Source of the DNA: Candidatus Eiseniibacteriota bacterium
Lineage (GTDB): Bacteria > Arandabacterota > Arandabacteria > Arandabacterales > Arandabacteraceae
DNA: 12,679 nucleotides
Direction of reading: 5' to 3'
NCBI GenBank assembly: GCA_043810925.1
Contig: JBDRNT010000116.1
Span: 1-12,679 of the forward strand
The translations under genes and the position numbers were made by a program. This document shows positions 1 through 12,679 of the stretch, piece by piece (positions within the stretch are counted from its first letter, which is position 1; the number at the start of each line of letters is the position of its first letter). The notes below the pieces were generated by a model, which had not been told where the DNA came from, made no database searches, and saw only the letters and a list, made by a program, of their open reading frames with translations.

Positions 1-140
1 TTCCTGAACTCATTGCTGCCATCGAAGAATTCATTGAGATCAACAATCAGAATCCAAAACCCTTTACATGGACCAAGAAAGTGGACGAGATATTGGAAAA
101 AGTCGGCCATTGTAAAGCCGTTATTGAGACACTACACTAG
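1..140 (+). mobile_element. Right end of an IS630-family insertion sequence (C-terminal fragment of the transposase gene, 5'-truncated by the window)
   Basis: The frame starting at nt 3 reads PELIAAIEEFIEINNQNPKPFTWTKKVDEILEKVGHCKAVIETLH* (TAG at 138-140). The N..PKPF.WTK..DEIL tail is characteristic of IS630-family DDE transposases. The element ends ...GAGACACTACAC-TA-G, consistent with the TA (CTAG) target of IS630. It is not in the ORF track because it has no start codon in the window. Confidence 0.85.
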
Positions 141-691
141 CAGAAGTGCAGGTAATGAGTGGCAAATGTGATGAAGTCCGTAAGATTCACGGTCCCGTCA
201 CAGTTAAAGTCACAGCACGGATTAGCCCCCAGGAAACACTGGGCGAACTGAACGAAATCGATAAGATTTACCTGGCAATCGCCATTAATGTCGGGGCTGG
301 CGACAAAAATGGGTGGTGTCGGGCCGGCCGCTCCACTGAATGTGGAGACCACTGAGAAGGTGACATTTCCGCATCCACCCTCTCTGAAGTAGGTGAAGTT
401 GACGACCGGGTTACCCACGGGAACAACCTGGGTCTGCGGATTCTGACCCGGGCAGAAGCAGATGAGCGGGCCTGCGGCCGTACATGTTATCCTCGTTCCC
501 ACAGGATAGCCGGCCGCCTCCGTAGCGGTTACCTGAATGGCACCCATGTCCCCGGTAGGACAGATTATGGCAGTTCCAGGATTGCAGCCTGGAGTACCGA
601 TACCGGCAGCAGATACGGTTACGGCCAGGCAGATATTTCCATACACAAGGCACAACAGAACAGCGAGCAGAACAGTGGTAATGATTCGCAT
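137..691 (-). CDS. Secreted cysteine-rich protein with a C-terminal dockerin-like / EF-hand-like duplicated Ca-binding motif
   Basis: 184-aa ORF with a GGAGGT SD at 700-705 (minus strand) and an N-terminal hydrophobic signal peptide (MRIITTVLLAVLLCLVYGNICLA). It has two DxNxDxxVNLxDF repeats (DINGDCQVNLIDF, DFNCDGTVNLTDF) and 14 Cys. Confidence 0.8.
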   Translation of the reverse strand: MRIITTVLLAVLLCLVYGNICLAVTVSAAGIGTPGCNPGTAIICPTGDMGAIQVTATEAAGYPVGTRITCTAAGPLICFCPGQNPQTQVVPVGNPVVNFTYFREGGCGNVTFSVVSTFSGAAGPTPPIFVASPDINGDCQVNLIDFVQFAQCFLGANPCCDFNCDGTVNLTDFITFATHYLHFC

Positions 692-841
692 CGTTGACTA
701 CCTCCATCGGGGTCCTGTGCTGCGCCACACCAAAAAGCCCTCAACTCACCTCCTTCCACAAGGGCACTCTTAGCAGCTTCTCTTGACGCGTGAACTTCTA
801 TCTACTGTCCTATCACATCCGAGCAGACTTTTCAAGGAGGA

Positions 842-955
842 AGGAATTCGGTGACAGTTTACGAATTCCTGAGGCGGGGTGGAAATCTTGTGACAGTTTG
901 AAGATTCCCGGAATGTCACCGCTGAGGGTGGTCAATTAGTAAACTGTCACCGAAT
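842..955. repeat. REP-like / MITE-like inverted-repeat element A (three hairpin units)
   Basis: 846-867 ATTCGGTGACAGTTTACGAATT and 934-955 AATTAGTAAACTGTCACCGAAT form a 22-bp inverted repeat with 1 mismatch. An internal third unit lies at 881-909 (GGAAATCTT-GTGACAGTTTG-AAGATTCCC). Confidence 0.85.
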
Positions 956-1797
956 CAAGAGACGTTCTGGGCGCAGCGAAACCCGACGTTGTCGTACGCA
1001 GTCGTGGCACTTAGATGGTAGCGAGTGCTCGCCCGCAGGTACTCCGGCCCACCGAACCACGAGCCACCCCGAAGGACTTGTGTTGCACCCGCTTCCGGAC
1101 CACGTGGATCGGACTCGGCGGACTCCCCGTAGTAATCAGAGCCGTACCGGTCGCTGCACCATTCCCAGACATTGCCTGCCATGTCAGACAGTCCATACCC
1201 GTTGGGAGGATAACTGCCGACGGGTGCGGGATAGGCATAGCCATCAGCGTCACTGCCAGCTCGCTTCCCGGTGTCATAGTTGGCCCGGTGTGTGCCACCC
1301 GCATCGGGGAGGTCATCACCCCAGGCATATCGCTTGCCCGCCAATCCACCGCGGGCGGCTTTCTCCCATTCCGCCTCGGTCGGAAGTCGCTTGCCTGCCC
1401 ACCGGGCGTAGGCCTCCGCATCATAGAATGTCACTCCGGTGACCGGCTGGTCCGGGCCATTGTACTTAGGGTCATTCCAGAACGGAGGCCGTGAGTTACC
1501 GGTTTCATCCAGGAAGCGTTTGTAGAGCGCGTTGGTCACTTCGTACCTGTCTATGTAGAACGCACTGATATGAACCATGTGTTGAGGCCGCTCATCGTTA
1601 TGGCCGTGCCGGTCGGGACTGCCCATCAGGTAATCCCCCGCAGGGATCAGAACCATCTCCGCGCCGTCCCTTGCAGTGATCGTTGCGGTCGGGCCCTCGG
1701 CCGGCATCCGGCCTGCCGCAGGCCGCCCGGCACACCCGGCCGCGAACATCGACAAAACCAGCATCAGACAGAGCCATCTGACGCCAACCGCTCTCAT
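955..1797 (-). CDS. FGE-sulfatase domain (SUMF1/EgtB/PvdO family) lipoprotein, lacking the FGE catalytic cysteines
   Basis: Family motifs: MVLIPAGDYLMGS, ERPQHMV, YEVTNALY, PVTGVTFYDA, RLPTEAEWEKAARGG, PNGYGLSDMAGNVWEW, RGGSW, VGFRC. Lipobox-like LSMFAAGC (Cys22). SD GAGGGAG upstream at about 1804-1810. Confidence 0.92.
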   Translation of the reverse strand: MRAVGVRWLCLMLVLSMFAAGCAGRPAAGRMPAEGPTATITARDGAEMVLIPAGDYLMGSPDRHGHNDERPQHMVHISAFYIDRYEVTNALYKRFLDETGNSRPPFWNDPKYNGPDQPVTGVTFYDAEAYARWAGKRLPTEAEWEKAARGGLAGKRYAWGDDLPDAGGTHRANYDTGKRAGSDADGYAYPAPVGSYPPNGYGLSDMAGNVWEWCSDRYGSDYYGESAESDPRGPEAGATQVLRGGSWFGGPEYLRASTRYHLSATTAYDNVGFRCAQNVS

Positions 1798-1814
1798 CTT
1801 TCACTCCCTCCGAT

Positions 1815-1927
1815 AATTCGGTGTCAGCTTACAAATTCTTAAACTGCTTCATGCCACTATGTCGGGTATTCTATGAATTTGTAAGCTGACACCAAATTTC
1901 GACACCAAATTTCCTGTCGCCGGATTT
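1815..1927. repeat. REP-like / MITE-like inverted-repeat element B with a tandem duplication at its right end
   Basis: 1815-1838 AATTCGGTGTCAGCTTACAAATTC and 1875-1898 GAATTTGTAAGCTGACACCAAATT form a 24-bp inverted repeat with 1 mismatch and a 36-nt spacer. GACACCAAATTTC is tandemly duplicated (1888-1900, 1901-1913), and a degenerate half-copy CTGTCGCCGGATTT follows at 1914-1927. Confidence 0.85.
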
Positions 1928-1933
1928 TATGGA

Positions 1934-1959
1934 GAATGCCGGCCCGAAGGCCAGCATTC
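1934..1959 (-). terminator. 3' hairpin (terminator or stabiliser) of gdhA
   Basis: On the minus strand the RNA reads GAAUGCUGGCC-UUCG-GGCCGGCAUUC: an 11-bp stem with one U-G pair and a C(UUCG)G tetraloop, 35 nt after the gdhA stop. The U-tract is poor (UCCAUAAAAU). Confidence 0.65.
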
Positions 1960-1994
1960 CCATATCACTCCAGGCCGGTTCGCGGTTTGTGCAT

Positions 1995-3359
1995 CTACCC
2001 GACTATGCCCAGGTCAAGCATGGTGTCCGCAACCTTGACGAAGCCTGCCATGTTGGCGCCGGCGACATAGTTGCCGATCAGGCCGTAGTGCGCGGCGGTC
2101 TCATGACACTGGCGGTGGATGCTTTTCATAATGTCATTGAGCTTGCTGTCCACTTCCTCACGAGACCAGCTATAGCGCATCGAGTTCTGGGTCATCTCGA
2201 GCCCCGATACCGCTACACCACCGGCATTCGCGGCCTTGCCCGGCCCGTAGAGGATCTTCTCATCGACGAAGATCTTGATACCTTCGGGCGTGGTCGGCAT
2301 GTTGGCTCCCTCAGAGACAACATAGCAGCCGTTCTTGATGAGGTTGGCAGCGTCCTTAGCGTTTATCTCATTCTGGGTAGCACTCGGGAATGCGGCTTCG
2401 GCCTTGTGGTTCCAGAGCGGATTGTGATCCATCTTCTTGTCCACAGGCGTGTAGACCGCCTTGGGATACTTATCGGCGTACTCCTTGATCCGGCCGCGAC
2501 GGACGTTCTTAAGATCCATGACGAAATCGAGCTTCTTCCTGTCGATTCCAGCCTCGTCATAGATGTAGCCACCGGAATCGGACAGCGTCACCGGCTTGGC
2601 ACCGAGATCGAGGAGCTTCTCTACCGTATACTGCGCAACGTTGCCGGAGCCGGATACCAGCGCGGTCTTCCCCTCAAGGCTCTCACCGCGAGTCTCAAGC
2701 ATCTCGGCCGCGAAATAAACGGCACCGTACCCGGTTGCCTCGGGCCGGATCAAGCTGCCGCCCCAGTTGAGGCCCTTGCCGGTGAGAACGCCGGTAAACT
2801 CGTTGCGGAGTTTCTTGTACATTCCGTACATATACCCGATCTCGCGCCCGCCGACCCCGATGTCTCCTGCCGGTACGTCCGTATTGGGGCCGATATGGCG
2901 GAAGAGTTCCATCATGAACGACTGGCAGAAACGTGCGACTTCCGAGTCAGACTTGCCCTTCGGATCGAAATCGGAACCACCCTTCCCACCACCCATGGGC
3001 AGGGTCGTGAGAGCGTTCTTGAAGACCTGCTCGAAGGCCAGGAACTTAAGAATGCCGAGGTTCACGGTCGGATGGAAGCGCAGTCCGCCTTTATAGGGAC
3101 CGATCGCGCTGTTCATCTCGATACGAAAGCCCCGGTTCACATGATACTCACCCTTATCATCTTCCCAGGGCACGCGGAATATGATCAGGCGCTCGGGCTC
3201 TGCGATCCTCTCGATGATCTTCGCCTTCCGGTACTCAGGATGCTTCTTGAGCACCGGACCCAGCGTAGGCACCACTTCCTCCACGGCCTGAATGAATTCA
3301 GGCTGTGCGGGGTTCTTTGCCTTCACTTTTTCCACAAAATCTTTCAGGTAGTCACCCAC
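1995..3359 (-). CDS. gdhA: NADP-specific glutamate dehydrogenase (about 454 aa)
   Basis: Motifs GPYKGGLRFHP, LKFLAFEQVFKN, MGGGKGGSDF, DVPAGDIGVG, RPEATGYG, GSGNVAQY, EGANMP, KAANAGGV. Start reassigned from 3458 to GTG at 3359, which has AGGAGG at 3370-3375 and matches the usual GdhA N-terminus. Cofactor specificity is inferred from the family. Confidence 0.96.
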   Translation of the reverse strand: MGDYLKDFVEKVKAKNPAQPEFIQAVEEVVPTLGPVLKKHPEYRKAKIIERIAEPERLIIFRVPWEDDKGEYHVNRGFRIEMNSAIGPYKGGLRFHPTVNLGILKFLAFEQVFKNALTTLPMGGGKGGSDFDPKGKSDSEVARFCQSFMMELFRHIGPNTDVPAGDIGVGGREIGYMYGMYKKLRNEFTGVLTGKGLNWGGSLIRPEATGYGAVYFAAEMLETRGESLEGKTALVSGSGNVAQYTVEKLLDLGAKPVTLSDSGGYIYDEAGIDRKKLDFVMDLKNVRRGRIKEYADKYPKAVYTPVDKKMDHNPLWNHKAEAAFPSATQNEINAKDAANLIKNGCYVVSEGANMPTTPEGIKIFVDEKILYGPGKAANAGGVAVSGLEMTQNSMRYSWSREEVDSKLNDIMKSIHRQCHETAAHYGLIGNYVAGANMAGFVKVADTMLDLGIVG

Positions 3360-3429
3360 GTGTCCAATCCCTCCTTTTGGAATGACTCTTCGTTTTTCGG
3401 GAAGATTCCCGACTGGACATACTCCCTGA

Positions 3430-3458
3430 TTTATAACACGGAAAGATGGCGTGGTCAA
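3430..3458 (-). promoter_or_regulatory. Putative sigma70 promoter for gdhA
   Basis: Minus strand TTGACC (3458-3453), 17 nt, TATAAA (3435-3430), with TG one base upstream of the -10. The -10 lacks the conserved final T. Confidence 0.55.
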
Positions 3459-3504
3459 GCCCGAAGGATGTCATGGTCGGGGCAAGAAAAAAGGCTTAAT
3501 CCTG

Positions 3505-3533
3505 TTGACAAACCAGGCCGGAATGGCTAAACT
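3505..3533 (+). promoter_or_regulatory. Sigma70 promoter for the leader ORF / ABC exporter operon
   Basis: Perfect TTGACA (3505-3510), 17 nt, TAAACT (3528-3533). An A-tract upstream (3487-3492) resembles an UP element. Confidence 0.75.
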
Positions 3534-3674
3534 TCTTTTTTAAGAAGTGTTCAAGTACGAAGCGACCTTTACCGAGTAAGGAGATTACACACGCAGTTTA
3601 ACCGCAGCCGGGTGATTGTTATGATCACTATATAACAAATTCGGACCCGATGCAGGGACGAGAGGAGGCAGGCA

Positions 3675-3773
3675 ATGACAAACATGATCGACATATTTGT
3701 GTTTGACCTTATCATTGTGCGTGTTCTCCGCAAGTGGTCCGACGGTTACGGGGGTTGCCATAGAAGGTCCTGA
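3675..3773 (+). CDS. Putative attenuator leader peptide, 32 aa (MTNMIDIFVFDLIIVRVLRKWSDGYGGCHRRS)
   Basis: Perfect SD AGGAGG at 3663-3668, 6 nt before ATG 3675; TGA at 3771-3773. It lies between the promoter and an intrinsic terminator and is too short for the supplied ORF track. Confidence 0.72.
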   Translation: MTNMIDIFVFDLIIVRVLRKWSDGYGGCHRRS

Positions 3774-3797
3774 GTAACTCAACAACTGGTAACGCTC

Positions 3798-3840
3798 AAC
3801 CCGCCGGATCGCCTGGGTGGTCCGGCGGGTTTTTATATTT
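3798..3840 (+). terminator. Intrinsic terminator (attenuator) upstream of the ABC exporter genes
   Basis: AACCCGCCGGA (3798-3808) pairs perfectly with TCCGGCGGGTT (3821-3831). The stem extends by TCGC/GTGG with G-U pairs, and the U-tract TTTTTATATTT covers 3830-3840. Confidence 0.9.
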
Positions 3841-3908
3841 CCGGGCCGGACTCGTGAGAAACTGATCGGCTTTGCAGAACCGCAGAGCCTTTGATACGGA
3901 GCAAGAGG

Positions 3909-5708
3909 ATGGAATCCGCTTACTACGAAGACGAAAAACATGACGGGATAGGTTCCCGGCAGGCACTCGCGCGACTGCTTCCGCTCCTCAGGCCGCACCG
4001 CGGATGGCTGCTTATATGCTTTTTGCTCCTGGCGGCCTCGAAGGTGATCTTCCTGATCGGACCTAATCTGATCCGGCACGCCATCGACGTGGATATCGCC
4101 GGGCGCGACTACCGGGGTCTGATCGGCACGGTACTGCTGTATGTTCTGGCTCAGGGCGTGTTCTTGGTCACCAACTATCTGTTCAGGATCAGGATGGAAA
4201 CGATCGGCCAGAGAGTGATGATCGGGCTGAGAAGGCGTCTCTTCGATCACATTGTCCGGATGTCGGTCTCCTTCTTTGACCGCAACCCTATCGGAAGACT
4301 GATGGCACGCGTGGAGTCGGACACCGAAGCCCTCCGGAGACTGTTCACGAACACCGTGGTGGCAATGATCGGGGCCGTGCTGCTTGTGGTGGGGATGTTT
4401 GTCTGGATGTTTACTATTTCCCCGCGTCTGACGGCGGTTGTCGCGATCATAGTCCCGGTCGTCAGCGTGGCTTTATACTTCTACCACCGCGTGACGACTC
4501 CCAAGTGGCTCGAGATACGAAAGCGTATGGCCGACGTCACGGCATCGCTTACGGAGTTTATCCAGGGGACTGAGATTATCCAGATTTTTGACCGGACAAA
4601 AGAGATTCGCCGGCGAATGGATGAGATCAACCGGAGAAAATATCAGACGCAGCTCAAGGCTGAGTTGATCGTGGTTGTCATGTTCAACTTCATCTTCTTT
4701 ATGGAGTCACTCATTATTGCGCTGGTGCTCTTCTTCGGAGGCCGCTGGGCGGGTGCAGGAGATCTGACTATTGGAACGCTGGTGATGTTTATCACATACG
4801 TACGGATGTTCTTTGAGCCGGTACATATTGCGGCTGAAGAGATCGCGGTTGTTCAGAAGGCCATCGCCGGGGCCAAGCGGATATTCGGTCTTCTCGATAC
4901 GGATGAGGCGATTCCTGAAACGGTGCGGCCGGTAGAGTGGCCGGGGCTTAACTCGGAAATCGCTTTCGAGAACGTCTGGTTTTCGTACACGGGTGATGAC
5001 AACTATGCTCTTCGGGATGTGTCATTCACGATCCCCAAGGGCAAGCAATATGCTCTTGCCGGCGTTACAGGTGGTGGGAAGTCCACCGTGATCAACCTGC
5101 TCCTCAGGTTTTATGACCCGCAGAAGGGCCGTATTCTTGTCGATGGGATCGATATCCGTGAGATCTCGCTTGAGGATCTGCGGTCGAGGATTGGCCTGGT
5201 GCTTCAGGACATCTTCCTCTTCCCCGGGAATGTCGGCAGCAACATCGCGCTCTCCGCGGGCGATTTCGACCATGACCGCGTGGTCGCCGCTTGCAGTAAG
5301 GTCGCAGCGGACCGTTTTATCGAGTCCATGCCGGACAGGTATGAGACCGAGCTTTCCGAGCGTGGCGCAAACATAAGCCGGGGCGAGAGACAGCTATTGT
5401 CATTTGCCAGGGCCCTGGTCTCCGACCCGGAGGTCCTCATCCTGGACGAGGCCACGAGCTCCGTCGATCCGGAAACCGAGCGGTTGATTCAGGACGGGCT
5501 TGCCGCCCTGATGAGCGGCCGGACTTCGATTGTGATCGCGCACCGGCTCTCCACGATCCTCAATGTGGACCAGATCATGGTGATCCGGGAAGGCGAGCTG
5601 ATAGAACGGGGACGACACGATGAACTCCTCGCGCAGGGAGGCTATTACTCAAAGCTCTTCCAGCTACAGTTCTCGTCCGCAAATGGGATGGGAGTGGACA
5701 GATCATGA
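3909..5708 (+). CDS. ABC exporter, fused TMD-NBD half-transporter (MdlB/BmrD-like subunit)
   Basis: Hydrophobic N-terminal TMD, Walker A GVTGGGKST, Q-loop VLQD, degenerate signature ISRGERQ, canonical Walker B LILDEATS, H-switch AHR. ATG at 3909, preceded by GGAG at 3898-3901, is preferred over TTG 3891. Confidence 0.94.
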   Translation: MESAYYEDEKHDGIGSRQALARLLPLLRPHRGWLLICFLLLAASKVIFLIGPNLIRHAIDVDIAGRDYRGLIGTVLLYVLAQGVFLVTNYLFRIRMETIGQRVMIGLRRRLFDHIVRMSVSFFDRNPIGRLMARVESDTEALRRLFTNTVVAMIGAVLLVVGMFVWMFTISPRLTAVVAIIVPVVSVALYFYHRVTTPKWLEIRKRMADVTASLTEFIQGTEIIQIFDRTKEIRRRMDEINRRKYQTQLKAELIVVVMFNFIFFMESLIIALVLFFGGRWAGAGDLTIGTLVMFITYVRMFFEPVHIAAEEIAVVQKAIAGAKRIFGLLDTDEAIPETVRPVEWPGLNSEIAFENVWFSYTGDDNYALRDVSFTIPKGKQYALAGVTGGGKSTVINLLLRFYDPQKGRILVDGIDIREISLEDLRSRIGLVLQDIFLFPGNVGSNIALSAGDFDHDRVVAACSKVAADRFIESMPDRYETELSERGANISRGERQLLSFARALVSDPEVLILDEATSSVDPETERLIQDGLAALMSGRTSIVIAHRLSTILNVDQIMVIREGELIERGRHDELLAQGGYYSKLFQLQFSSANGMGVDRS

Positions 5709-7555
5709 AAACAAACTCCAAACATATACGGTGGTTCTGGAAGTATTACCGCAACCACAAAAGGGCGCTGACCGTCCTTCTGACGGTGTCGTTTCTGTCG
5801 AGTGCGATTCTGGTAGTACAGCCGATCCTGCTTAAGAACATATTCGACCTGCTTCAGTCAGGGGAGACCCGACCGACCAGGCTGCCCTTTATGAATGAAT
5901 GGATTGAGGGCGTGACAGGCGGTGAGATCACCAACTATGTGATCCTGCTGATCATCTTCGGGCTGGCGGGATTCGTGGTGAGATCGTTTCTGGTAGGACA
6001 TCGTGCCTACCTAAATATAAGGTTCGAGCGCGAGTTCAGACAGGCGGCGTTTGACGGCGTTATCGGGAAAGGACCGGATTTCTTCAACCGGTTCGGCACC
6101 GGCGATCTTGTAACCAGGATGACCGACGACGTGTCGGAGGACAAACTCGCGTGGTTTGCGTGCAGTGGCATCTTCCGGTTCTACGAGTCGCTTACGGTGA
6201 TCGCTTTCAGCCTGGTGATGATGCTCTCGATCAACCCGGTGCTGACGGCCTGGACGGCGGGGCCCCTCCCGATATTGATCCTCATCTACATGAGGAGTTC
6301 GTCGCTTCTTGACCGGAGATTCGATTTCCTCCAGAAGAAGATATCGATCGTAAACGACACGATGGAAGCGTGTTTCTCGGGCATCCGGGTGATCAAGGCA
6401 TACGTCCGTGAGAAGGACCAGAAACAGCGGTTCGCCGACGCAACAGAGGGTCGCAGGCAGGCGGAGATCGCAGCCGTGAGAACCCACACTGTGATCGAGT
6501 CCTTGTGGATGTATATCTGGCAGCTGGGAATCGTGATAGTGCTGCTGGCAGGCGGGTATTACGTCATCAACGGGAGGCTCTCGATCGGTGAGTTCATCGC
6601 GTTTGACTCCTACGTGTTGTTCCTGATCGTGCCGATGTTTGATGCAGGCAACTTCCTTGTAAGAGGACTGAGGGCGCTTGTATCAGTCAAGCGTCTGGCG
6701 GAGCTCGAAGAACATCCCGCGATGATCAACGCGGAAGAGACTCGACGGGGAGTCTCGACCAGGGCGAAGGGGCACGTGGAATTCGATGGTGTATCGTTCC
6801 GCTTCCCGGGTCACGACAGAGATATCCTGAGTGATGTCTCATTCGCCGTCGAGCCGGGCCGCCGGATTGCTCTCGTGGGTCGTGTGGGATCGGGCAAGAG
6901 CTGGGTCGTACGGATGATCCCGCGACTGGTAGACCCCACAGGAGGCAGTATACGCATAGATGGTACCTGCCTCAGGGAGTATGATATACATGCCATCAGA
7001 CAGCAGATCGGGTACGTACCCCAGGAGCCGATCCTGTTCTCGGACACGATCGAAAACAACATCAGGTTCGGGCGGGCAGACGTCACGGACGAGACTATTG
7101 ACTGGGCGATCGAGGTATCACAGTTGCGTGATGAACTCAATACCTTTCCCGAAGGAATCCGGACCAAGATCGGTGTTCGGGGTGTGTCGATCTCGGGCGG
7201 ACAGAAGCAGCGGGTCGCACTGGCCAGAGCGCTGGTCGGAAAACCCAGGATCCTGATTCTCGATGACTGCACGTCGGCGCTCGACGCGAGTACCGAAGCG
7301 GTTCTGTGGGACAGGCTGCACGAGGTCATGCCGGATCTCACGTGCTTCATAATCACGCATCGTCCGGCCACCCTCGAGCTCGCCGACAACATCATCGTAA
7401 TGGATGGCGGTAAGATCGTCGAAAGGGGCGACCATCCGGGCCTTATCGAGCAGGGCGGCATCTACCGGAAGCTCTATCACCGGATAATGCTTGAGGAAGA
7501 AATAGAGACCGGGGAACACTCCGAGTTCCGGAGCGACCCCGCTGAAGGCAACTAA
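5705..7555 (+). CDS. ABC exporter, fused TMD-NBD half-transporter (MdlA/BmrC-like subunit)
   Basis: TMD with TGDLVTRMTDD, Walker A GRVGSGKS, Q-loop VPQE, signature ISGGQKQR, degenerate Walker B LILDDCTS, H-switch THR. ATGA overlap with the upstream stop suggests translational coupling. Confidence 0.94.
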   Translation: MKTNSKHIRWFWKYYRNHKRALTVLLTVSFLSSAILVVQPILLKNIFDLLQSGETRPTRLPFMNEWIEGVTGGEITNYVILLIIFGLAGFVVRSFLVGHRAYLNIRFEREFRQAAFDGVIGKGPDFFNRFGTGDLVTRMTDDVSEDKLAWFACSGIFRFYESLTVIAFSLVMMLSINPVLTAWTAGPLPILILIYMRSSSLLDRRFDFLQKKISIVNDTMEACFSGIRVIKAYVREKDQKQRFADATEGRRQAEIAAVRTHTVIESLWMYIWQLGIVIVLLAGGYYVINGRLSIGEFIAFDSYVLFLIVPMFDAGNFLVRGLRALVSVKRLAELEEHPAMINAEETRRGVSTRAKGHVEFDGVSFRFPGHDRDILSDVSFAVEPGRRIALVGRVGSGKSWVVRMIPRLVDPTGGSIRIDGTCLREYDIHAIRQQIGYVPQEPILFSDTIENNIRFGRADVTDETIDWAIEVSQLRDELNTFPEGIRTKIGVRGVSISGGQKQRVALARALVGKPRILILDDCTSALDASTEAVLWDRLHEVMPDLTCFIITHRPATLELADNIIVMDGGKIVERGDHPGLIEQGGIYRKLYHRIMLEEEIETGEHSEFRSDPAEGN

Positions 7556-7691
7556 CCCGCAGGGTCATCGCGGGCATATTACTCACAGATGTGGGCTGGA
7601 ATTGGGTCTATGTAGTTGTGGTTTAAGGTATTATGTGGATGGTTCTTAAACCTGTTTAAGGATGGAGGCCATGAGGGTCCGAGGGATGTTC

Positions 7692-10600
7692 TTAGCTTCT
7701 GGCCGTGCGGATGACGCGGGCGGACCAGGCGCGGAGATCATCAAGAAGCACATAGATTGTCGGCAACACCAGGAGCGTGATCACAGTTGAGAAACCGAGT
7801 CCTCCAACGATTGCGCGCGCCATCGGAAAGTAGGGCGGCCCACCACCACCGATTTGCGTTGTAACGATACACAGCGGTACGAGACTCAGGATCGTCGTAC
7901 CCGCAGTCATCAGAATCGGCCGGAGACGTGCTCCTCCCGCCTCGACGAGCGCCTCGTCCCGTTTCACGCCCTTGGCTCGAAGTTGATTCACGTAGTCAAT
8001 GAGCACGATACCGTTATTGACCACGACACCTATGAGAATCAAGATACCTATCATCGCCATGATGGTCATCGTGGTACCCGTGATCATGAAAAACCAGAAG
8101 ACACCCACTATCGCAAACAGGATTTGTGACCAGATAGCTGCGGGAAACAGAAGCGATTCAAAAAGAGAAGCCATCACGAAATAGATCAAGGCCAGCGCAA
8201 GAAGCAGGTTTACAAGCATCGTGTTGAAGGCCTCTTCCTCCCGGTCGAAGCTCTCCCCATAGTTCCAGGTGTACCCTGCGGGCATATCGAAATTCGCGAG
8301 TGCCTGCGCTATCTTGTCCTTGGCCTCACCCACTGTCAGACCGTCAAGGTTAGCAGTAACTCCGAGTGACGTTGTCCGGTTCTCGCGATGGATGCTCTGC
8401 GGCCCGCGACTGACCGAAAAATCCGCAAGTGACGCGAGCATGACCGGCTGGTTCTCTCCGTTGAAAAGCGGCAGATTCTGAAGGTGCTCGAGTGTCCGTC
8501 TGTCGCCTTCCTGGAATTCAAGCCGCATCGGCACTTCCCCGTCCTCGCTTTGAAACGGCCGCAAATTGATGCCTCTCATCGCCGCCGATACGACGTTGGC
8601 AATCTCCTGGGTCGAGAACCCATACTGCCGTGCACGATCCCGGTCGACCACCACGTGTACCTCTTCCTCGCCGACCTCGGCCTCGGAGCGAACATCGTCA
8701 AGACCGGGGACCCGTGACAGCACCCAGGCCACGTCGTGGGAGAGATCCACAAGCACCTCGCTGGACTTGCCCGTAAGCTGGACACGGACTGACTGTTCGT
8801 CACCGGTAGGATCACGATGATCGAAGGACGGATTCGCTATCGCCAGGCGGGGCAGACCCTCACGGATGGCATCGCGGATCTCATCCATCGACTTCGATGC
8901 CTCCTTTCCCTTCTTAAGAAGAATGGTCGACATCGCGTAGTTTCCCTGGTAGTAGCTGTAGACCGACTCGACGTCGAAGTCATCCTTATGCGAGAACAGA
9001 TAATCCTCGTATGTGTCCACGGCGTTTTCCACCTTCTCGACGGTGTAATGGCCGTTTATGTGGTAATGTAGCCTGATTCTGCGGTCCTCCGGTTCATCGA
9101 ACATATCCTTCTTCACAACCTGGAAAGGCAGCGCAACGCTTGCCAGGAGGACGATGACCAAACCGACTGTGGCTCGCCGGTGCCTGAGCGACCATTCAAG
9201 GAGACGCCGGTAGTGTCCCGTCAGGCGCCTGACTGCGGCACTCGACTGGTCCCTGCGCGGGGGCTTTACCCGCGATACAAGCAAGGGAACAATGGTCTGC
9301 GCCATGATGAGTGATGCACCAAGCGCAATTACCAGGCTGATCGCAACATGCTTAATATAGATCGCGATCTGATCATTTGCACTTACGATATTGGGCAGGA
9401 AGACGATTGCAGTCGTTAGTGTACCCGCCGTGATCGCAAGGGAAACCTCGCTGACTCCGAGAGGGATCGCTCTGGCAGGGGTGGGATCGACCAACTGATG
9501 GCGATGGATACTCTCTGTAACCACAACGGCATTGTCGACAAGCATGCCTACTGCCAGCATCAGTCCCATCATAGTGAGAATATTGAGAGAGACACCGATG
9601 AAATACATGAACGCCATGGCGATCAAAAGCGAGAATGGAACAGACATCACGACGATCAACGTGGTGACAAACCGGCGCAGGAAAAAGAACAGGAGGACCA
9701 TCGCCAGCAGTCCTCCCATAATGCCCGATTTCAAGAGCTCGTTTATCGAGCTCACAATCCCCTCGGCCATGTTATCCAGATAGAAGAGCCGTATGCCCGC
9801 CATCTCCGGAAGCCGGCTGATCTCGTCGATTTCGGCAATCACCAGTTCAGCGACTTCAACGGTGTTGGCTCCGGCCTCTTTAAAGACATCGAGCCCGATG
9901 GCATAGCGCCGGTCGAGATGACGACCATACGTCAGTTCGGGATTGTCGTAGGTGACATCGGCTATGTCGCTCAAACGAACACCCGCGGCCCCAACAACAA
10001 TGTTCCGGATCTCATCGACATCCTTAAGTTCGCCCACAGGCCGGACGACGAAACGGCTGTTGTTGTCGGTGATCTTTCCCGCGGTAACGAGGAAATTGCT
10101 GCGTCGAAGTTCCTCCACGAGGCCTCCGATGTCAACCCGGTGTGAGATGATCCTGTCGGCGGAGAGTCGGATCTGGATCTCTTTCTTTTCGACACCATAG
10201 AGATCGATCTTGGCAATGCCCTCGATGCGTTCCAGCCGCCGCTTGAGGTTGCGGTTGAGCATGTCGTAGGAGTCCGAAAGATCACGATCGCTTGAGATGC
10301 GGATCTGGAGCATTTCCATATCGGTCGTTGACCATTTGCGGACATGAAACCGCTCGAGATCGTCGGGGAACAGATGCCTTATGCCCTCCAGTTTCTCCCT
10401 GGCCTCGAGTGACTTGATATCGGTATTTATACCCCAGTCGAATTCTATCCCGATCCACGTACCGCTTTCCCACGTATTGGACTCCATTTTCTTGATTCCG
10501 CTTATCGTTGCAAGCACCTCTTCAGCCGGCCGCGTGATCCGCCGTTCGATCTCCTCGGGTGTCGAGCCGGGATAGGGAATCTCGATGCCGACATAGGGCA

Positions 10601-10724
10601 CGTCGATATCCGGCAGGAACTCAAGCGGCAGCATCTGGCTTGCGATCACTCCGATCACAATGAAGCAGGCAAACACCATGAAGGTGGTGACGGGTCGCCG
10701 GAGCGATGTGTTTGTAATATTCAT
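7692..10724 (-). CDS. RND efflux transporter permease, AcrB/AcrD/AcrF family
   Basis: 1010 aa. Motifs RRPVTT, YPGSTPEEIE, GMLVDNAVVVTE (TM4), MASLFES, GVVVNNGIVLID (TM10), RLRPILMT, PMARAIVGGL. Two large periplasmic loops. Confidence 0.95.
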   Translation of the reverse strand: MNITNTSLRRPVTTFMVFACFIVIGVIASQMLPLEFLPDIDVPYVGIEIPYPGSTPEEIERRITRPAEEVLATISGIKKMESNTWESGTWIGIEFDWGINTDIKSLEAREKLEGIRHLFPDDLERFHVRKWSTTDMEMLQIRISSDRDLSDSYDMLNRNLKRRLERIEGIAKIDLYGVEKKEIQIRLSADRIISHRVDIGGLVEELRRSNFLVTAGKITDNNSRFVVRPVGELKDVDEIRNIVVGAAGVRLSDIADVTYDNPELTYGRHLDRRYAIGLDVFKEAGANTVEVAELVIAEIDEISRLPEMAGIRLFYLDNMAEGIVSSINELLKSGIMGGLLAMVLLFFFLRRFVTTLIVVMSVPFSLLIAMAFMYFIGVSLNILTMMGLMLAVGMLVDNAVVVTESIHRHQLVDPTPARAIPLGVSEVSLAITAGTLTTAIVFLPNIVSANDQIAIYIKHVAISLVIALGASLIMAQTIVPLLVSRVKPPRRDQSSAAVRRLTGHYRRLLEWSLRHRRATVGLVIVLLASVALPFQVVKKDMFDEPEDRRIRLHYHINGHYTVEKVENAVDTYEDYLFSHKDDFDVESVYSYYQGNYAMSTILLKKGKEASKSMDEIRDAIREGLPRLAIANPSFDHRDPTGDEQSVRVQLTGKSSEVLVDLSHDVAWVLSRVPGLDDVRSEAEVGEEEVHVVVDRDRARQYGFSTQEIANVVSAAMRGINLRPFQSEDGEVPMRLEFQEGDRRTLEHLQNLPLFNGENQPVMLASLADFSVSRGPQSIHRENRTTSLGVTANLDGLTVGEAKDKIAQALANFDMPAGYTWNYGESFDREEEAFNTMLVNLLLALALIYFVMASLFESLLFPAAIWSQILFAIVGVFWFFMITGTTMTIMAMIGILILIGVVVNNGIVLIDYVNQLRAKGVKRDEALVEAGGARLRPILMTAGTTILSLVPLCIVTTQIGGGGPPYFPMARAIVGGLGFSTVITLLVLPTIYVLLDDLRAWSARVIRTARS

Positions 10725-10736
10725 GAGCCGGCTCCG

Positions 10737-12679
10737 CTAGCTCTTGCGGTCCACTACAGAGTAGACGACCGGGATTACAACGAGGGTCAGCAGTGTCGAC
10801 ACGGTCAACCCGCCGATCACGGTGATCGCCATCGGCGAGCGGATCTCGGACCCTTCGCCGAACCCGATGGCCAGTGGCAGGAGCCCCAGCGCCGTGGTGA
10901 TCGTCGTCATCAGAATCGGTCTCAGACGCAGGCGTCCGCCCTGCATAATCGCATCCATCTTGGCCATACCCTGTGCCCGAAGCTTGTTTATCAGATCTAT
11001 GAGCACAATGGCGTTATTGACAACGATGCCTGCTAGAAGAATCGCCCCTATGAATACAACGACACTTATAGTAGAGCCCGTGACGGCAAGTGCCAGTACG
11101 GCCCCGATCAACGCCAGCGGAATCGTAAGCAGTATCACAAACGGGTGGAGAAACGACTCAAACTGCGACGCCATGACGAGATAGACCAGGAAGACAGCAA
11201 GCAGAAGCGCAAACTGCATCGAGCCGAATGAAACCGCCATCTCCTCACTCTGCCCCGCGAGCCGCACACCGATCCCCGATGGAACCGGAACCCTGGCCAG
11301 GATACCGTTTATCTCCTCAGTCGCCGCTCCCAGGTCACCGTGGCGAAGATTGGCTGTAACCAGTGCGACACGCTCCTGGTCGATGCGCCGAATCTCGCCC
11401 GGTCCCGTGTCGACAACGATATCTGCAACGGCCTCGAGTGGAATCGGACGATCGCTCTCGGGATTGACTAGCAGGTTGCGTATGCGCTCGATCGAGTTGC
11501 GATCTTCCTCGCGGGCACGAACGAGGACGTCTATCTTCCGGTCATGCCAGGAATACCGGGTTGCGACCTCCCCGCGTACCTTATCCACGACACGATCGGC
11601 GATCTGATAGACCGGTAGGCCGAACGCGGCCGCGCGATCACGATCGAAACGAATCTGGATCTCGGGATGACCGCTCTCCATCGTGGTCTTGACATCCGCG
11701 AACCTCGAAGACGCCTCCAGACGGCGGGCAATGTCATCACTTACGCTCTTCAGGCGGTCGAGCTCGAAGCCTGCGATCTCGATCTCTACGGGTGTCCTGA
11801 AGGTGAAGAGTGTGGGTCTCGAGAACTTGTACTGGACCCCCGGCATCGAGGCAAGTTCACCGCGTAGGCTTGCCATAACATCTTCTTCATCATCCCTCGT
11901 AGAACCGGGTACAAGCACGACTGCAAGCTCTCCCCAGTTCTCCCCGCCCTGCTCCGGATTGGCATCCATGCGGTTTCCTGTACCCGCGACCGAGAAAGTC
12001 GTGGTAACCCTGTCCACCTTCCGGGCTGAGGCCTGTATGTCGGCGATCGCCCGGTCTGTAACGTCAAGCGGCGTGCCCGGTGGCAGGCGAAACTCCACAC
12101 TGAACTCTCCCTGTGAGAGCTGCGGTATGAGTTCAACACCGAGTATCGGTATGAGAAACACGGCGATCACAAACAGCCCAAAGGCTGTTGCCATAACCAC
12201 CCGTCTGTGTGCCAGAGCCCATTCGAGCAGTACCGGGTAGCGCTCCTCAAGCGTCCCGTAGACGCGCTGAAACGCGTTGAGACCCGGAGTCATGATCAGA
12301 AGCAAGAGCCGTGCGATCCCACGCGTGAGCCTCAAGATCAGCCTCGCCAGGAAAACAGGAACAGCCATGAAGACAAGGCCCCGGATCCGTCCGGCCATGC
12401 GCCGGAACTTCCCCGTGGGCTCCACCCCGGTTTTGGCCGGCGGCGGGTCGACTGCGGCGTCTTTGCGACTCTGCTGCGAAGCCAGCATGGGAATCAATGT
12501 AAGTGCAACCACCAGCGAGGCAAGCAGCGCGAACGTCACTGTGAGAGCCTGATCGCGGAAAAGTTGGCCGGCGATCCCCTTGACGAAGACCAGCGGAAAG
12601 AAGACGGCAATCGTGGTCAGGGTGGATGCGGTCACAGCCATCCCCACCTCGCTTGCCCCCTCCCGGGCAGCCGTGAGGG
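10737..12679 (-). CDS. RND efflux transporter permease, AcrB/AcrD/AcrF family (5'-truncated by the window edge)
   Basis: The frame stays open to the window end (LTAAREGASEVGMAVTASTLTT...), so 12647 is not the real start. Motifs GQLFRDQALTV, MASQFES, GIVVNNAIVLID, RLRPILMTT, PMAITVIGGL. It ends 12 nt before the next RND gene. Confidence 0.94.
   Translation of the reverse strand, partial: LTAAREGASEVGMAVTASTLTTIAVFFPLVFVKGIAGQLFRDQALTVTFALLASLVVALTLIPMLASQQSRKDAAVDPPPAKTGVEPTGKFRRMAGRIRGLVFMAVPVFLARLILRLTRGIARLLLLIMTPGLNAFQRVYGTLEERYPVLLEWALAHRRVVMATAFGLFVIAVFLIPILGVELIPQLSQGEFSVEFRLPPGTPLDVTDRAIADIQASARKVDRVTTTFSVAGTGNRMDANPEQGGENWGELAVVLVPGSTRDDEEDVMASLRGELASMPGVQYKFSRPTLFTFRTPVEIEIAGFELDRLKSVSDDIARRLEASSRFADVKTTMESGHPEIQIRFDRDRAAAFGLPVYQIADRVVDKVRGEVATRYSWHDRKIDVLVRAREEDRNSIERIRNLLVNPESDRPIPLEAVADIVVDTGPGEIRRIDQERVALVTANLRHGDLGAATEEINGILARVPVPSGIGVRLAGQSEEMAVSFGSMQFALLLAVFLVYLVMASQFESFLHPFVILLTIPLALIGAVLALAVTGSTISVVVFIGAILLAGIVVNNAIVLIDLINKLRAQGMAKMDAIMQGGRLRLRPILMTTITTALGLLPLAIGFGEGSEIRSPMAITVIGGLTVSTLLTLVVIPVVYSVVDRKS

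Follow-up and report, generated by a model that had tools for sequence, protein, structure and literature searches.

What decides whether RNA polymerase, having set out towards an exporter operon, stops at a terminator placed in its path or reads on into the genes? The question is raised by a leader in a 12,679-nt stretch of DNA from a Candidatus Eiseniibacteriota bacterium, placed by GTDB in the Arandabacterota (assembly GCA_043810925.1, contig JBDRNT010000116.1, positions 1 to 12,679 of the forward strand); "the window" denotes the whole of this stretch. In front of two ATP-binding cassette (ABC) genes, a promoter is followed by a 5′ untranslated region (5′UTR), a short upstream open reading frame (uORF) led by a Shine-Dalgarno (SD) sequence, and an intrinsic terminator. 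We consider it likely that this leader is a ribosome-dependent transcription attenuator: when translation is slow or stalled, it would turn on expression of a heterodimeric type IV ABC exporter. A first-pass annotation had already located the promoter, the SD sequence, the 32-codon uORF, the terminator and the ABC start at 3909, and a re-check of the sequence places them identically. The predicted elements are as follows (MFE, minimum free energy):

3505–3533, + strand: sigma-70-type promoter (−35 TTGACA at 3505–3510, 17 nt, −10 TAAACT at 3528–3533; 10 of 12 positions agree with the consensus)
3602–3610, + strand: anti-antiterminator element 1a, pairing with 3743–3751 (one mismatch in the window copy)
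3641–3647, + strand: anti-antiterminator element 1b, pairing with 3736–3742 (the best ungapped 5′UTR helix in the window, p = 0.08 against shuffles)
3663–3668, + strand: SD sequence AGGAGG of the uORF, 6 nt 5′ of the ATG at 3675
3675–3773, + strand: leader uORF of 32 codons, SD-led, with its ATG at 3675
3734–3747, + strand: antiterminator strand, uORF codons 20–25, whose partner is the terminator 5′ arm (3798–3812)
3750–3797, + strand: antiterminator inner helices 3754–3760:3787–3793 and 3750–3752:3795–3797, and an apical helix 3771–3774:3778–3781 with the stop codon, all from the MFE
3798–3840, + strand: intrinsic terminator (5′ arm 3798–3812, loop, 3′ arm 3817–3831, T-rich tail)
3845–3852, + strand: possible partner for the freed terminator 3′ arm (3819–3826; p = 0.02 in the window)

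Competing pairings of one leader strand

Folding predictions give the uORF strand 3734–3751 three competing states: it pairs with the 5′UTR, it pairs with the 5′ arm of the terminator, or it does neither and the terminator forms. That 3734–3745 repeats the terminator 3′ arm (3817–3828) at 11 of 12 positions was noticed in the first-pass annotation and holds on re-checking; among 41 terminator-like hairpins in the same genome, only the one in the window has an upstream 12-mer within one mismatch of its 3′ arm. In a transcript ending at 3812–3816 the strand 3734–3745 folds onto 3801–3812 with ∼11.5 expected pairs (z = −2.7, 200 shuffles), and in full-length window RNA the terminator folds (14.7 pairs) while antiterminator pairs drop to ∼0. 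Lack of a competing fold had been named beforehand as a result that would sink the idea: in nascent window RNA the fold is present. Its interior is not as first drawn, however. The nested helices proposed earlier (3745–3749:3789–3793 and 3754–3757:3783–3786) are real complementarities but reach only −15.3 kcal/mol against −30.7 kcal/mol for the MFE, which uses the inner helices listed above; they were discarded on energy. The antiterminator is the nascent MFE structure in 16 of 16 leaders tested (z from −1.2 to −4.4).

Relatives conserve the leader, with compensatory changes; a lack of such conservation would likewise have counted against the first-pass idea. The terminator (stem 3798–3831, 15 pairs, −29.2 kcal/mol, followed by a T-tract) has 96.2% of alignment cells paired across 26 leaders. 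For the antiterminator there are three covariation tests, which are inflated by kinship, the leaders being related and the counts overstating their independence: in 26 group-1 leaders the register first claimed has 87.5% of cells paired, with a both-side count reached by 8 of 500 shuffles; a shifted register in the same leaders, picked after the data were seen, has 92.9% paired and 11 both-side changes (0 of 500 shuffles); and in 20 divergent leaders four of nine pairs have changed on both sides (0 of 500). Slid controls gave fewer paired cells and fewer both-side cells in all three tests, and one of them beat the covariation score of the claimed register. One position of the terminator arm pairs with the antiterminator strand in 18 of the 20 divergent leaders and is mismatched within the terminator in 18 of 20; in a third sequence group (eight loci) both antiterminator strands are altered together. 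These comparisons indicate that the antiterminator is selected in its own right, as a structure exclusive with the terminator.

Pairing of the strand with the 5′UTR was overlooked in the first-pass annotation. In group 1 an element complementary to the antiterminator strand lies 45–95 nt 5′ of the start codon; in group 2 it is closer. Its helix, an anti-antiterminator, would enclose both the SD sequence and the uORF. The pairing of element 1a forms in naked window RNA ending at 3760, and that of element 1b in the MFE of 3540–3760. Across 20 group-1 leaders, chosen because the 5′UTR element was visible in them, the element 1a helix has 90.5% of cells paired and 10 both-side changes (0 of 500 shuffles). 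In a working set of 51 leaders (27 minus one near-duplicate, plus 25 of the 26 in a second batch, one at a contig end being dropped), freeing the antiterminator strand costs more than the shuffled-5′UTR mean in 46 cases (12 shuffles each).

A 5′UTR of this kind could be read in another way: an RNA-binding protein, a small RNA or a metabolite bound there, or access to the SD sequence of the uORF, might throw the switch, with elongation secondary. The window's 5′UTR is 135 nt long and structured, with conserved elements. In naked RNA the SD sequence (3663–3668) pairs back onto the uORF with a probability of 0.76 in the window and above 0.5 in 19 of 27 leaders (a strict SD:uORF helix test is passed by 11 of 51 leaders, the window not among them), and one subgroup has a putative DNA operator embedded in the leader (see below). 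We nonetheless think such a factor improbable as the main control: the length varies from ∼50 to 175 nt among leaders, the bases conserved in it are the pairing partners of the antiterminator strand, and the uORF is kept far above chance. The Rfam 15 covariance models gave no match in the window at E up to 1 and, at five related loci, one tRNA and two weak terminator-type matches far below the gathering score.

Support for the promoter comes from its conservation in leaders, because a single match is statistically uninformative (5 sigma-70 matches were found against 6.6 expected): a match of at least 9 of 12 positions lies 60–260 nt 5′ of the uORF in 47 of the 51 leaders. Judged from the position of the promoter, transcription would start at ∼3540. 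A separate start between 3840 and 3909 would have undone the first-pass proposal; no promoter was found there, and eight of 51 relatives leave 15–35 nt from the U-tract to the ABC start, so spaced that an internal promoter after the terminator looks unlikely. Pairing of 3845–3852 with 3819–3826 may lock the read-through state; a partner of this type reaches p < 0.05 in only 13 of 51 leaders.

The leader reading frame and the proposed switch

If the ribosome operates the switch, what does it read? The uORF was defined as an SD-led frame that starts 30–70 nt before the antiterminator strand, spans it, and stops 20–42 nt before the terminator arm; 49 of 51 leaders have one, against 3.4% in shuffles. 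Lengths run from 23 to 33 codons, the strand begins at codon 13–22 (mode 18), and the distance from stop to arm is 23–29 nt in 42 leaders and 23–40 nt in all 51. Neither sequence group keeps one frame relative to the strand, codons 2–12 show no conserved position (top residue in at most 14 of 51), and C-terminal residues that look conserved shift with the frame while the RNA stays. The window peptide has no Pfam or NCBIfam match. Taken together, these comparisons imply that the uORF is selected as a frame and not as a peptide.

Two explanations that depend on the peptide can be weighed here. In the first, a classical isoleucine or branched-chain attenuator, ribosomes would stall on Ile, Val or Leu codons when the corresponding tRNAs are uncharged. 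The control zone in the window is indeed 47% Ile/Leu/Val, Ile makes up 14.1% in the 51 leaders against 7.3% in N-termini of genes of the window's genome, and real amino-acid attenuators of the phylum Zixibacteria are laid out in the same way. The background was taken from one genome, however, and the Ile excess, like a rise in Asn, may partly be A+T bias. No single-residue run exceeds two in any of the 51 leaders, whereas the real Trp and Tyr leaders have clear runs; the commonest control-zone residue is one of 13 different amino acids, depending on the leader, and none fills four of the last eight control codons. Since the genes downstream encode an exporter, with no biosynthetic or synthetase genes, we give this explanation little credence. 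The second is a ligand-dependent arrest peptide, a nascent chain that would stall the ribosome only in the presence of a small molecule, perhaps the exporter's substrate. A hydrophobic control zone in which acidic residues are scarce (Glu 0.5%, Asp 2.2%) and the narrow range of start-to-strand distances would suit it, but the variability of codons 2–12 and the behaviour of the C-terminal residues make it an unlikely account.

We return to an attenuator that senses translation as such. During normal translation, as polymerase synthesises the terminator arms, the ribosome would cover both the strand and the inner helix, and it would finish at a stop codon 23–29 nt before the terminator arm; the antiterminator could then not nucleate, the 5′UTR would capture the strand, and transcription would end near 3835. 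A ribosome held within the first ∼15 codons would instead leave 3734–3797 free, and the freed inner helix could zip onto the emerging 5′ arm, allowing polymerase to read into the exporter genes. Because conservation extends to the RNA and its spacing but not to frame or peptide, the signal is probably a general one: drugs that target the ribosome, or any shortage by which these codons are read more slowly. The earlier figure of a stall "before codon 15" should be taken as a geometric estimate only. That full translation favours termination, also proposed earlier, fits the modelling: a ribosome on window codons 26–32 removes 13–26 kcal/mol from the antiterminator (−31.7 kcal/mol when unmasked), whose remaining stability ranges from −5.7 kcal/mol at codon 26 to −18.7 kcal/mol at codon 32, less than the −29.2 kcal/mol of the terminator.

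The direction of the switch is argued by analogy. Three amino-acid attenuators came to light in Zixibacteria: a four-Trp leader before anthranilate synthase (trpE) and Tyr-rich leaders before chorismate mutase genes. Their strand-to-arm distances (54–58 nt) and stop-to-arm distances (25, 26 and 42 nt) match those of the ABC leaders, and their control codons end ∼3–7 codons before the antiterminator strand. By the established working of amino-acid attenuators, a stall upstream of the antiterminator strand should mean read-through; since these share the geometry, "stall equals read-through" is supported for the ABC leaders as well. The three loci are L131:297–460 and L140:295–448 (both in − strand orientation) and L134:308–481; the Tyr-rich leaders precede an AroH-type chorismate mutase and a fusion of chorismate mutase, prephenate dehydratase and 3-deoxy-D-arabino-heptulosonate-7-phosphate (DAHP) synthase.

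Besides the kinship of the leaders, several results weigh against this attenuator. In 26 of 27 full-length leaders the terminator is the more stable fold at equilibrium, by 0.8–16 kcal/mol, and read-through therefore needs kinetic trapping. The core helix still forms in nascent RNA with a modelled ribosome at the stop codon (probability 0.97), which means that steric and timing effects must add to masking. The anti-antiterminator is weak in the window, where freeing the strand costs 7.5 kcal/mol against 7.5 kcal/mol for shuffled 5′UTRs (p = 0.08–0.37); a strict ungapped test for it is passed by 19 of 51 leaders (14 of 32 in group 1, 5 of 19 in group 2), and a test of 5′UTR:strand duplexes with free bulges is mixed, the cognate pair being best in only 4 of 27. 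A ribosome footprint placed upstream makes the strand only slightly cheaper to free (median ∼1 kcal/mol), with drops of more than 0.5 kcal/mol in 25 of 51 leaders at codon 1, 16 at codon 5 and 34 at six codons before the strand. For the window the cost falls from 7.5 to 4.2 (codon 1) and 4.6 kcal/mol (codon 5) but rises to 8.9 kcal/mol at codon 15. Equilibrium scans of ribosome position located no stall window, positions upstream of the strand being barely separated. Finally, among 20 exporter orthologues without a hit to our second covariance model (see below), three have no recognisable leader and two no called terminator. An unregulated leaky terminator with a built-in competing strand, setting a fixed low expression of the exporter, could draw on the dominance of the terminator at equilibrium, on the small effect of a modelled ribosome upstream of the strand and on the few orthologues whose leader is absent or eroded, but it is the least likely of the four alternatives, for it would not need a conserved SD-led uORF, a fixed stop-to-arm spacing or a third helix that covaries across two phyla.

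Distribution, exporter genes and a Rex-type site

How widely is the cassette spread, and does it keep company with the same genes? A protein search of species genomes returned 14 loci, 12 of them full-length at 71–95% identity, and all 12 full-length orthologues carry promoter, uORF, antiterminator strand and terminator; these elements were not seen at the other two loci, a 52% fragment without upstream DNA and a 31% paralogue. A metagenome scan by RNA pattern alone gave 11 hits, every one directly 5′ of the same ABC gene and with an SD-led uORF. With a first covariance model the leader was found in 13 of 18 genomes of the window's own phylum (the five without it also lack a close exporter orthologue) and, in a second phylum, Zixibacteria, in 62 of the 151 genomes sampled; all 30 top loci, four of them training sequences, precede the same ABC gene. 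A second model, built from the divergent group, found it in 93 of 151 Zixibacteria-phylum genomes. Its strong hits outside the training set precede the exporter gene in 14 of 14 cases, and its 20 weaker hits comprise seven before the exporter gene, the three amino-acid attenuators and ten that are neither. The remaining 15 of the 20 orthologues that it missed include 10 clear cassettes (eight of a third sequence type), three weaker ones and two that are not fully readable.

The second model found nothing in 19 and 14 genomes of the phyla of the two next-best ABC matches, nor in the five own-phylum genomes without a close orthologue, in searches that held no positive genome. Within the window's own genome it is only the leader itself, among four hits, that is real; the other three are weak (E 0.06–0.9), and two of these, on inspection, have no uORF or ABC gene.

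Some individual loci deserve mention. Terminators are apparently eroding at L169 and L178; L161, L164 and L173 lack any recognisable leader; at L161 there is a short SD-led open reading frame without a terminator. Two copies of the exporter gene are present in G179 (C114, C233) and G203 (C1, C23), both copies in G179 keeping the leader (L137, L138). A record labelled Ignavibacteriales by its submitter (L005/L081) has the same leader sequence as G061 of the Zixibacteria-phylum set. The second phylum contains a record labelled Zixiibacteriota, and relatives of the window's genome bear the submitter label Candidatus Eisenbacteria.

The genes downstream of the leader are:

3909–5708, + strand: ABC exporter subunit 1, 599 aa (intact Walker B, degenerate signature; TmrA/TM288/BmrD-like)
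5705–7555, + strand: ABC exporter subunit 2, 616 aa (Asp of Walker B in place of the catalytic Glu, consensus signature; TM287/TmrB/BmrC-like)

Both proteins are half-transporters (ABC_membrane plus ABC_tran), and their motif pattern, with one degenerate nucleotide site, is kept in 10 of 10 loci that have both genes. Among solved structures, the best bacterial matches of subunit 1 are TmrA, TM288 and BmrD, and those of subunit 2 are TM287, TmrB and BmrC. Subunit 1 matches BmrD at E 8e-106, and TmrA and TM288 better still; subunit 2 matches BmrC at E 4e-86. Neither protein passes a curated NCBIfam cut-off among the best 25 families listed, and scores far below the cut-offs exclude CydDC. By motifs and matches, the two genes are identified as a heterodimeric type IV ABC exporter. 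In one clade of orthologues (L003, L006, L009, L027 and L052) subunit 1 has an insertion of ∼15–20 residues near residues 277–290, which splits the search matches in two.

A quick tree built from 53 subunit-1 sequences groups the 13 rows of the window's own phylum as a clade (Shimodaira-Hasegawa-like approximate likelihood ratio test (SH-aLRT) 98), nested in a 22-row clade (SH-aLRT 100) together with one Zixibacteria family; both have the group-1 leader. Keeping the Zixibacteria rows together was rejected by an approximately unbiased test on 23 tree rows (p = 0.001), for a group that was named after the first tree had been seen and with long outgroup branches. Operon and leader were probably transferred together, from Zixibacteria, to judge from the tree and this test.

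Of the neighbours, the gene for NADP-specific glutamate dehydrogenase (gdhA; 1995–3361, − strand), divergent from the leader, was ruled out as part of the system: it is adjacent in only one of 15 loci. Convergent with the ABC pair are two adjacent genes for permeases of the resistance-nodulation-division (RND) family (7692–12647, − strand), one complete and one cut by the contig end. Farther upstream lie genes for a secreted protein with a weak match to a GC-type dockerin (137–691, − strand) and for a lipoprotein with weak matches of GldK/EgtB/PvdO type (955–1797, − strand).

One branch of the family has a further feature. The sequence TTGTGAA-N4-TTCACAA recurs, with no more than two mismatches, at the antiterminator tip of 13 of 41 divergent Zixibacteria leaders, and in all eight for which the offset was computed the TGA of the site is the stop codon of the uORF:

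L085, L088, L092, L094, L096, L100, L101, L102, L114, L116, L122, L123 and L149: putative Rex-type operator at the end of the uORF

This sequence is the Rex consensus of Staphylococcus aureus, where verified Rex sites are at promoters (PMC2883068); that consensus and the neighbouring genes displaced our first reading of the palindrome as a CRP box. The core palindrome occurs 68 times in five box-bearing genomes against 6 and 10 times with other spacings and 5 times for a reversed control. A Rex protein is present in four of four box-bearing genomes tested, and genes next to such palindromes (11 proteins scanned) include rex twice, sat, nuoB, and those for indolepyruvate oxidoreductase and aldehyde dehydrogenase; the palindrome stands 5′ of rex, sat, nuo and further redox genes. 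Unlike the promoter sites of PMC2883068, the sites in leaders lie ∼150 nt 3′ of the presumed transcription start, and inspection by eye revealed no promoter at a constant distance from the box. All 32 group-1 leaders depart from the consensus by four mismatches or more, the best site in the window having five, and no Rex protein was found in the window's genome (91.7% complete): the window copy is the version without the operator.

It is conceivable, though we hold it with more doubt than belief, that this uncatalogued family was inherited in much of Zixibacteria and handed on with its exporter to a second phylum, and that one of its branches is a dual-input switch with a Rex operator over the uORF stop codon and the antiterminator tip. 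In that branch Rex, a repressor that senses NADH/NAD+, would form a roadblock; by gating or timing the decision that the ribosome controls, it would tie efflux to the redox state in addition to stress on translation. Alternatively, the palindrome is a hairpin in which the stop codon is included by chance and which has been kept by descent. An operator of Rex type within the switch would, if real, tie redox sensing to attenuation in an unusual way and be a clue to the purpose of the exporter. Elsewhere in several Zixibacteria genomes, Rex-type palindromes form arrays ∼64–75 bp apart (G147:C1:379059–379215, G182:C29:18919–19063, G182:C30:71700–71780, G111:C54:261–340 and G147:C19:319–400), and five occur within the 735 bp of G120:C27:35795–36529; three of these share a spacer and stand ∼200 bp from one another, which may mark a repeat array.

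Comparison with known systems

Is the switch new? Its basic mechanism is already known; the leader family is uncatalogued. We found no literature that joins Zixibacteria with transcription attenuation and no description of this leader family, or of a Rex site inside an attenuator, in a search whose coverage mostly excludes subscription journals. In the papers cited below, control of this kind has been shown experimentally mainly in Firmicutes and Actinobacteria; if our reading holds, ribosome-sensing control of a multidrug-type exporter is an old and widespread trait of the uncultured Zixibacteria, which moves between phyla with its operon. The family would then offer dozens of natural variants in which three helices covary, along with ready-made reference attenuators that share their layout, from which the minimal rules of a sequence-independent stall sensor could be tested in a laboratory host.

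Attenuators before ABC transporters, including heterodimeric exporters, are common (PMC2965389, PMC4319486). The patAB attenuator of Streptococcus pneumoniae is likewise a terminator/antiterminator leader before an ABC transporter, and its description does not mention a leader peptide (PMC4319486). The ABC-leaders of Naville and Gautheret share the same arrangement; the five shown come from Firmicutes and Gammaproteobacteria, and the supplementary alignments of that study could bear on novelty (PMC2965389).

Nearer in logic are leaders in which a ribosome is involved. Attenuators of the trp, phe and tyr type have the same spacing of strand, stop codon and arm and a similar G-rich/C-rich pairing, but they have Trp or Tyr runs and biosynthetic genes, and the ABC leaders have neither. 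In the vmlR leader of Bacillus subtilis the uORF lies within an anti-antiterminator, which a stalled ribosome blocks so that the antiterminator is allowed (PMC9226507); enclosure of the uORF by an anti-antiterminator would be common to both. The vmlR uORF, however, has three codons and senses initiation arrest, with a NusG pause and an SD-sequestering hairpin, and its target is an ABC-F protein (PMC9226507), whereas the uORF described here is long (23–33 codons), itself carries the antiterminator strand, and serves a membrane exporter. The mycobacterial whiB7 leader has a uORF that varies in length and sequence and is enriched in alanine; efficient translation leads to an intrinsic terminator, and a drug-induced stall or lack of any encoded amino acid to an antiterminator (10.1101/2023.06.02.543512). 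A variable uORF and an intrinsic terminator before the gene are thus shared; the whiB7 leader differs in its alanine enrichment, in its phylum and in controlling a transcription factor.

The first-pass annotation had compared the locus with bmrB, the leader of bmrCD in B. subtilis, and the likeness stands as regards regulatory logic: bmrCD, a heterodimeric exporter of multidrug type, is preceded by a translated leader with anti-antiterminator, antiterminator and terminator (PMC4191407), parts that are predicted here as well. Chloramphenicol induces bmrCD, which confers protection against phleomycin and bleomycin (10.1101/2025.01.13.632840). In layout the comparison fails. The coding region of bmrB, at 53 codons, holds all three hairpins, terminator included (PMC4191407), whereas here the uORF has 23–33 codons, the terminator follows 23–40 nt after its stop, and the partner of the anti-antiterminator lies in the 5′UTR; the gene order is also reversed, the BmrD-like subunit coming first. 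Layout and gene order set this leader apart: it is not a member of the bmrB family.

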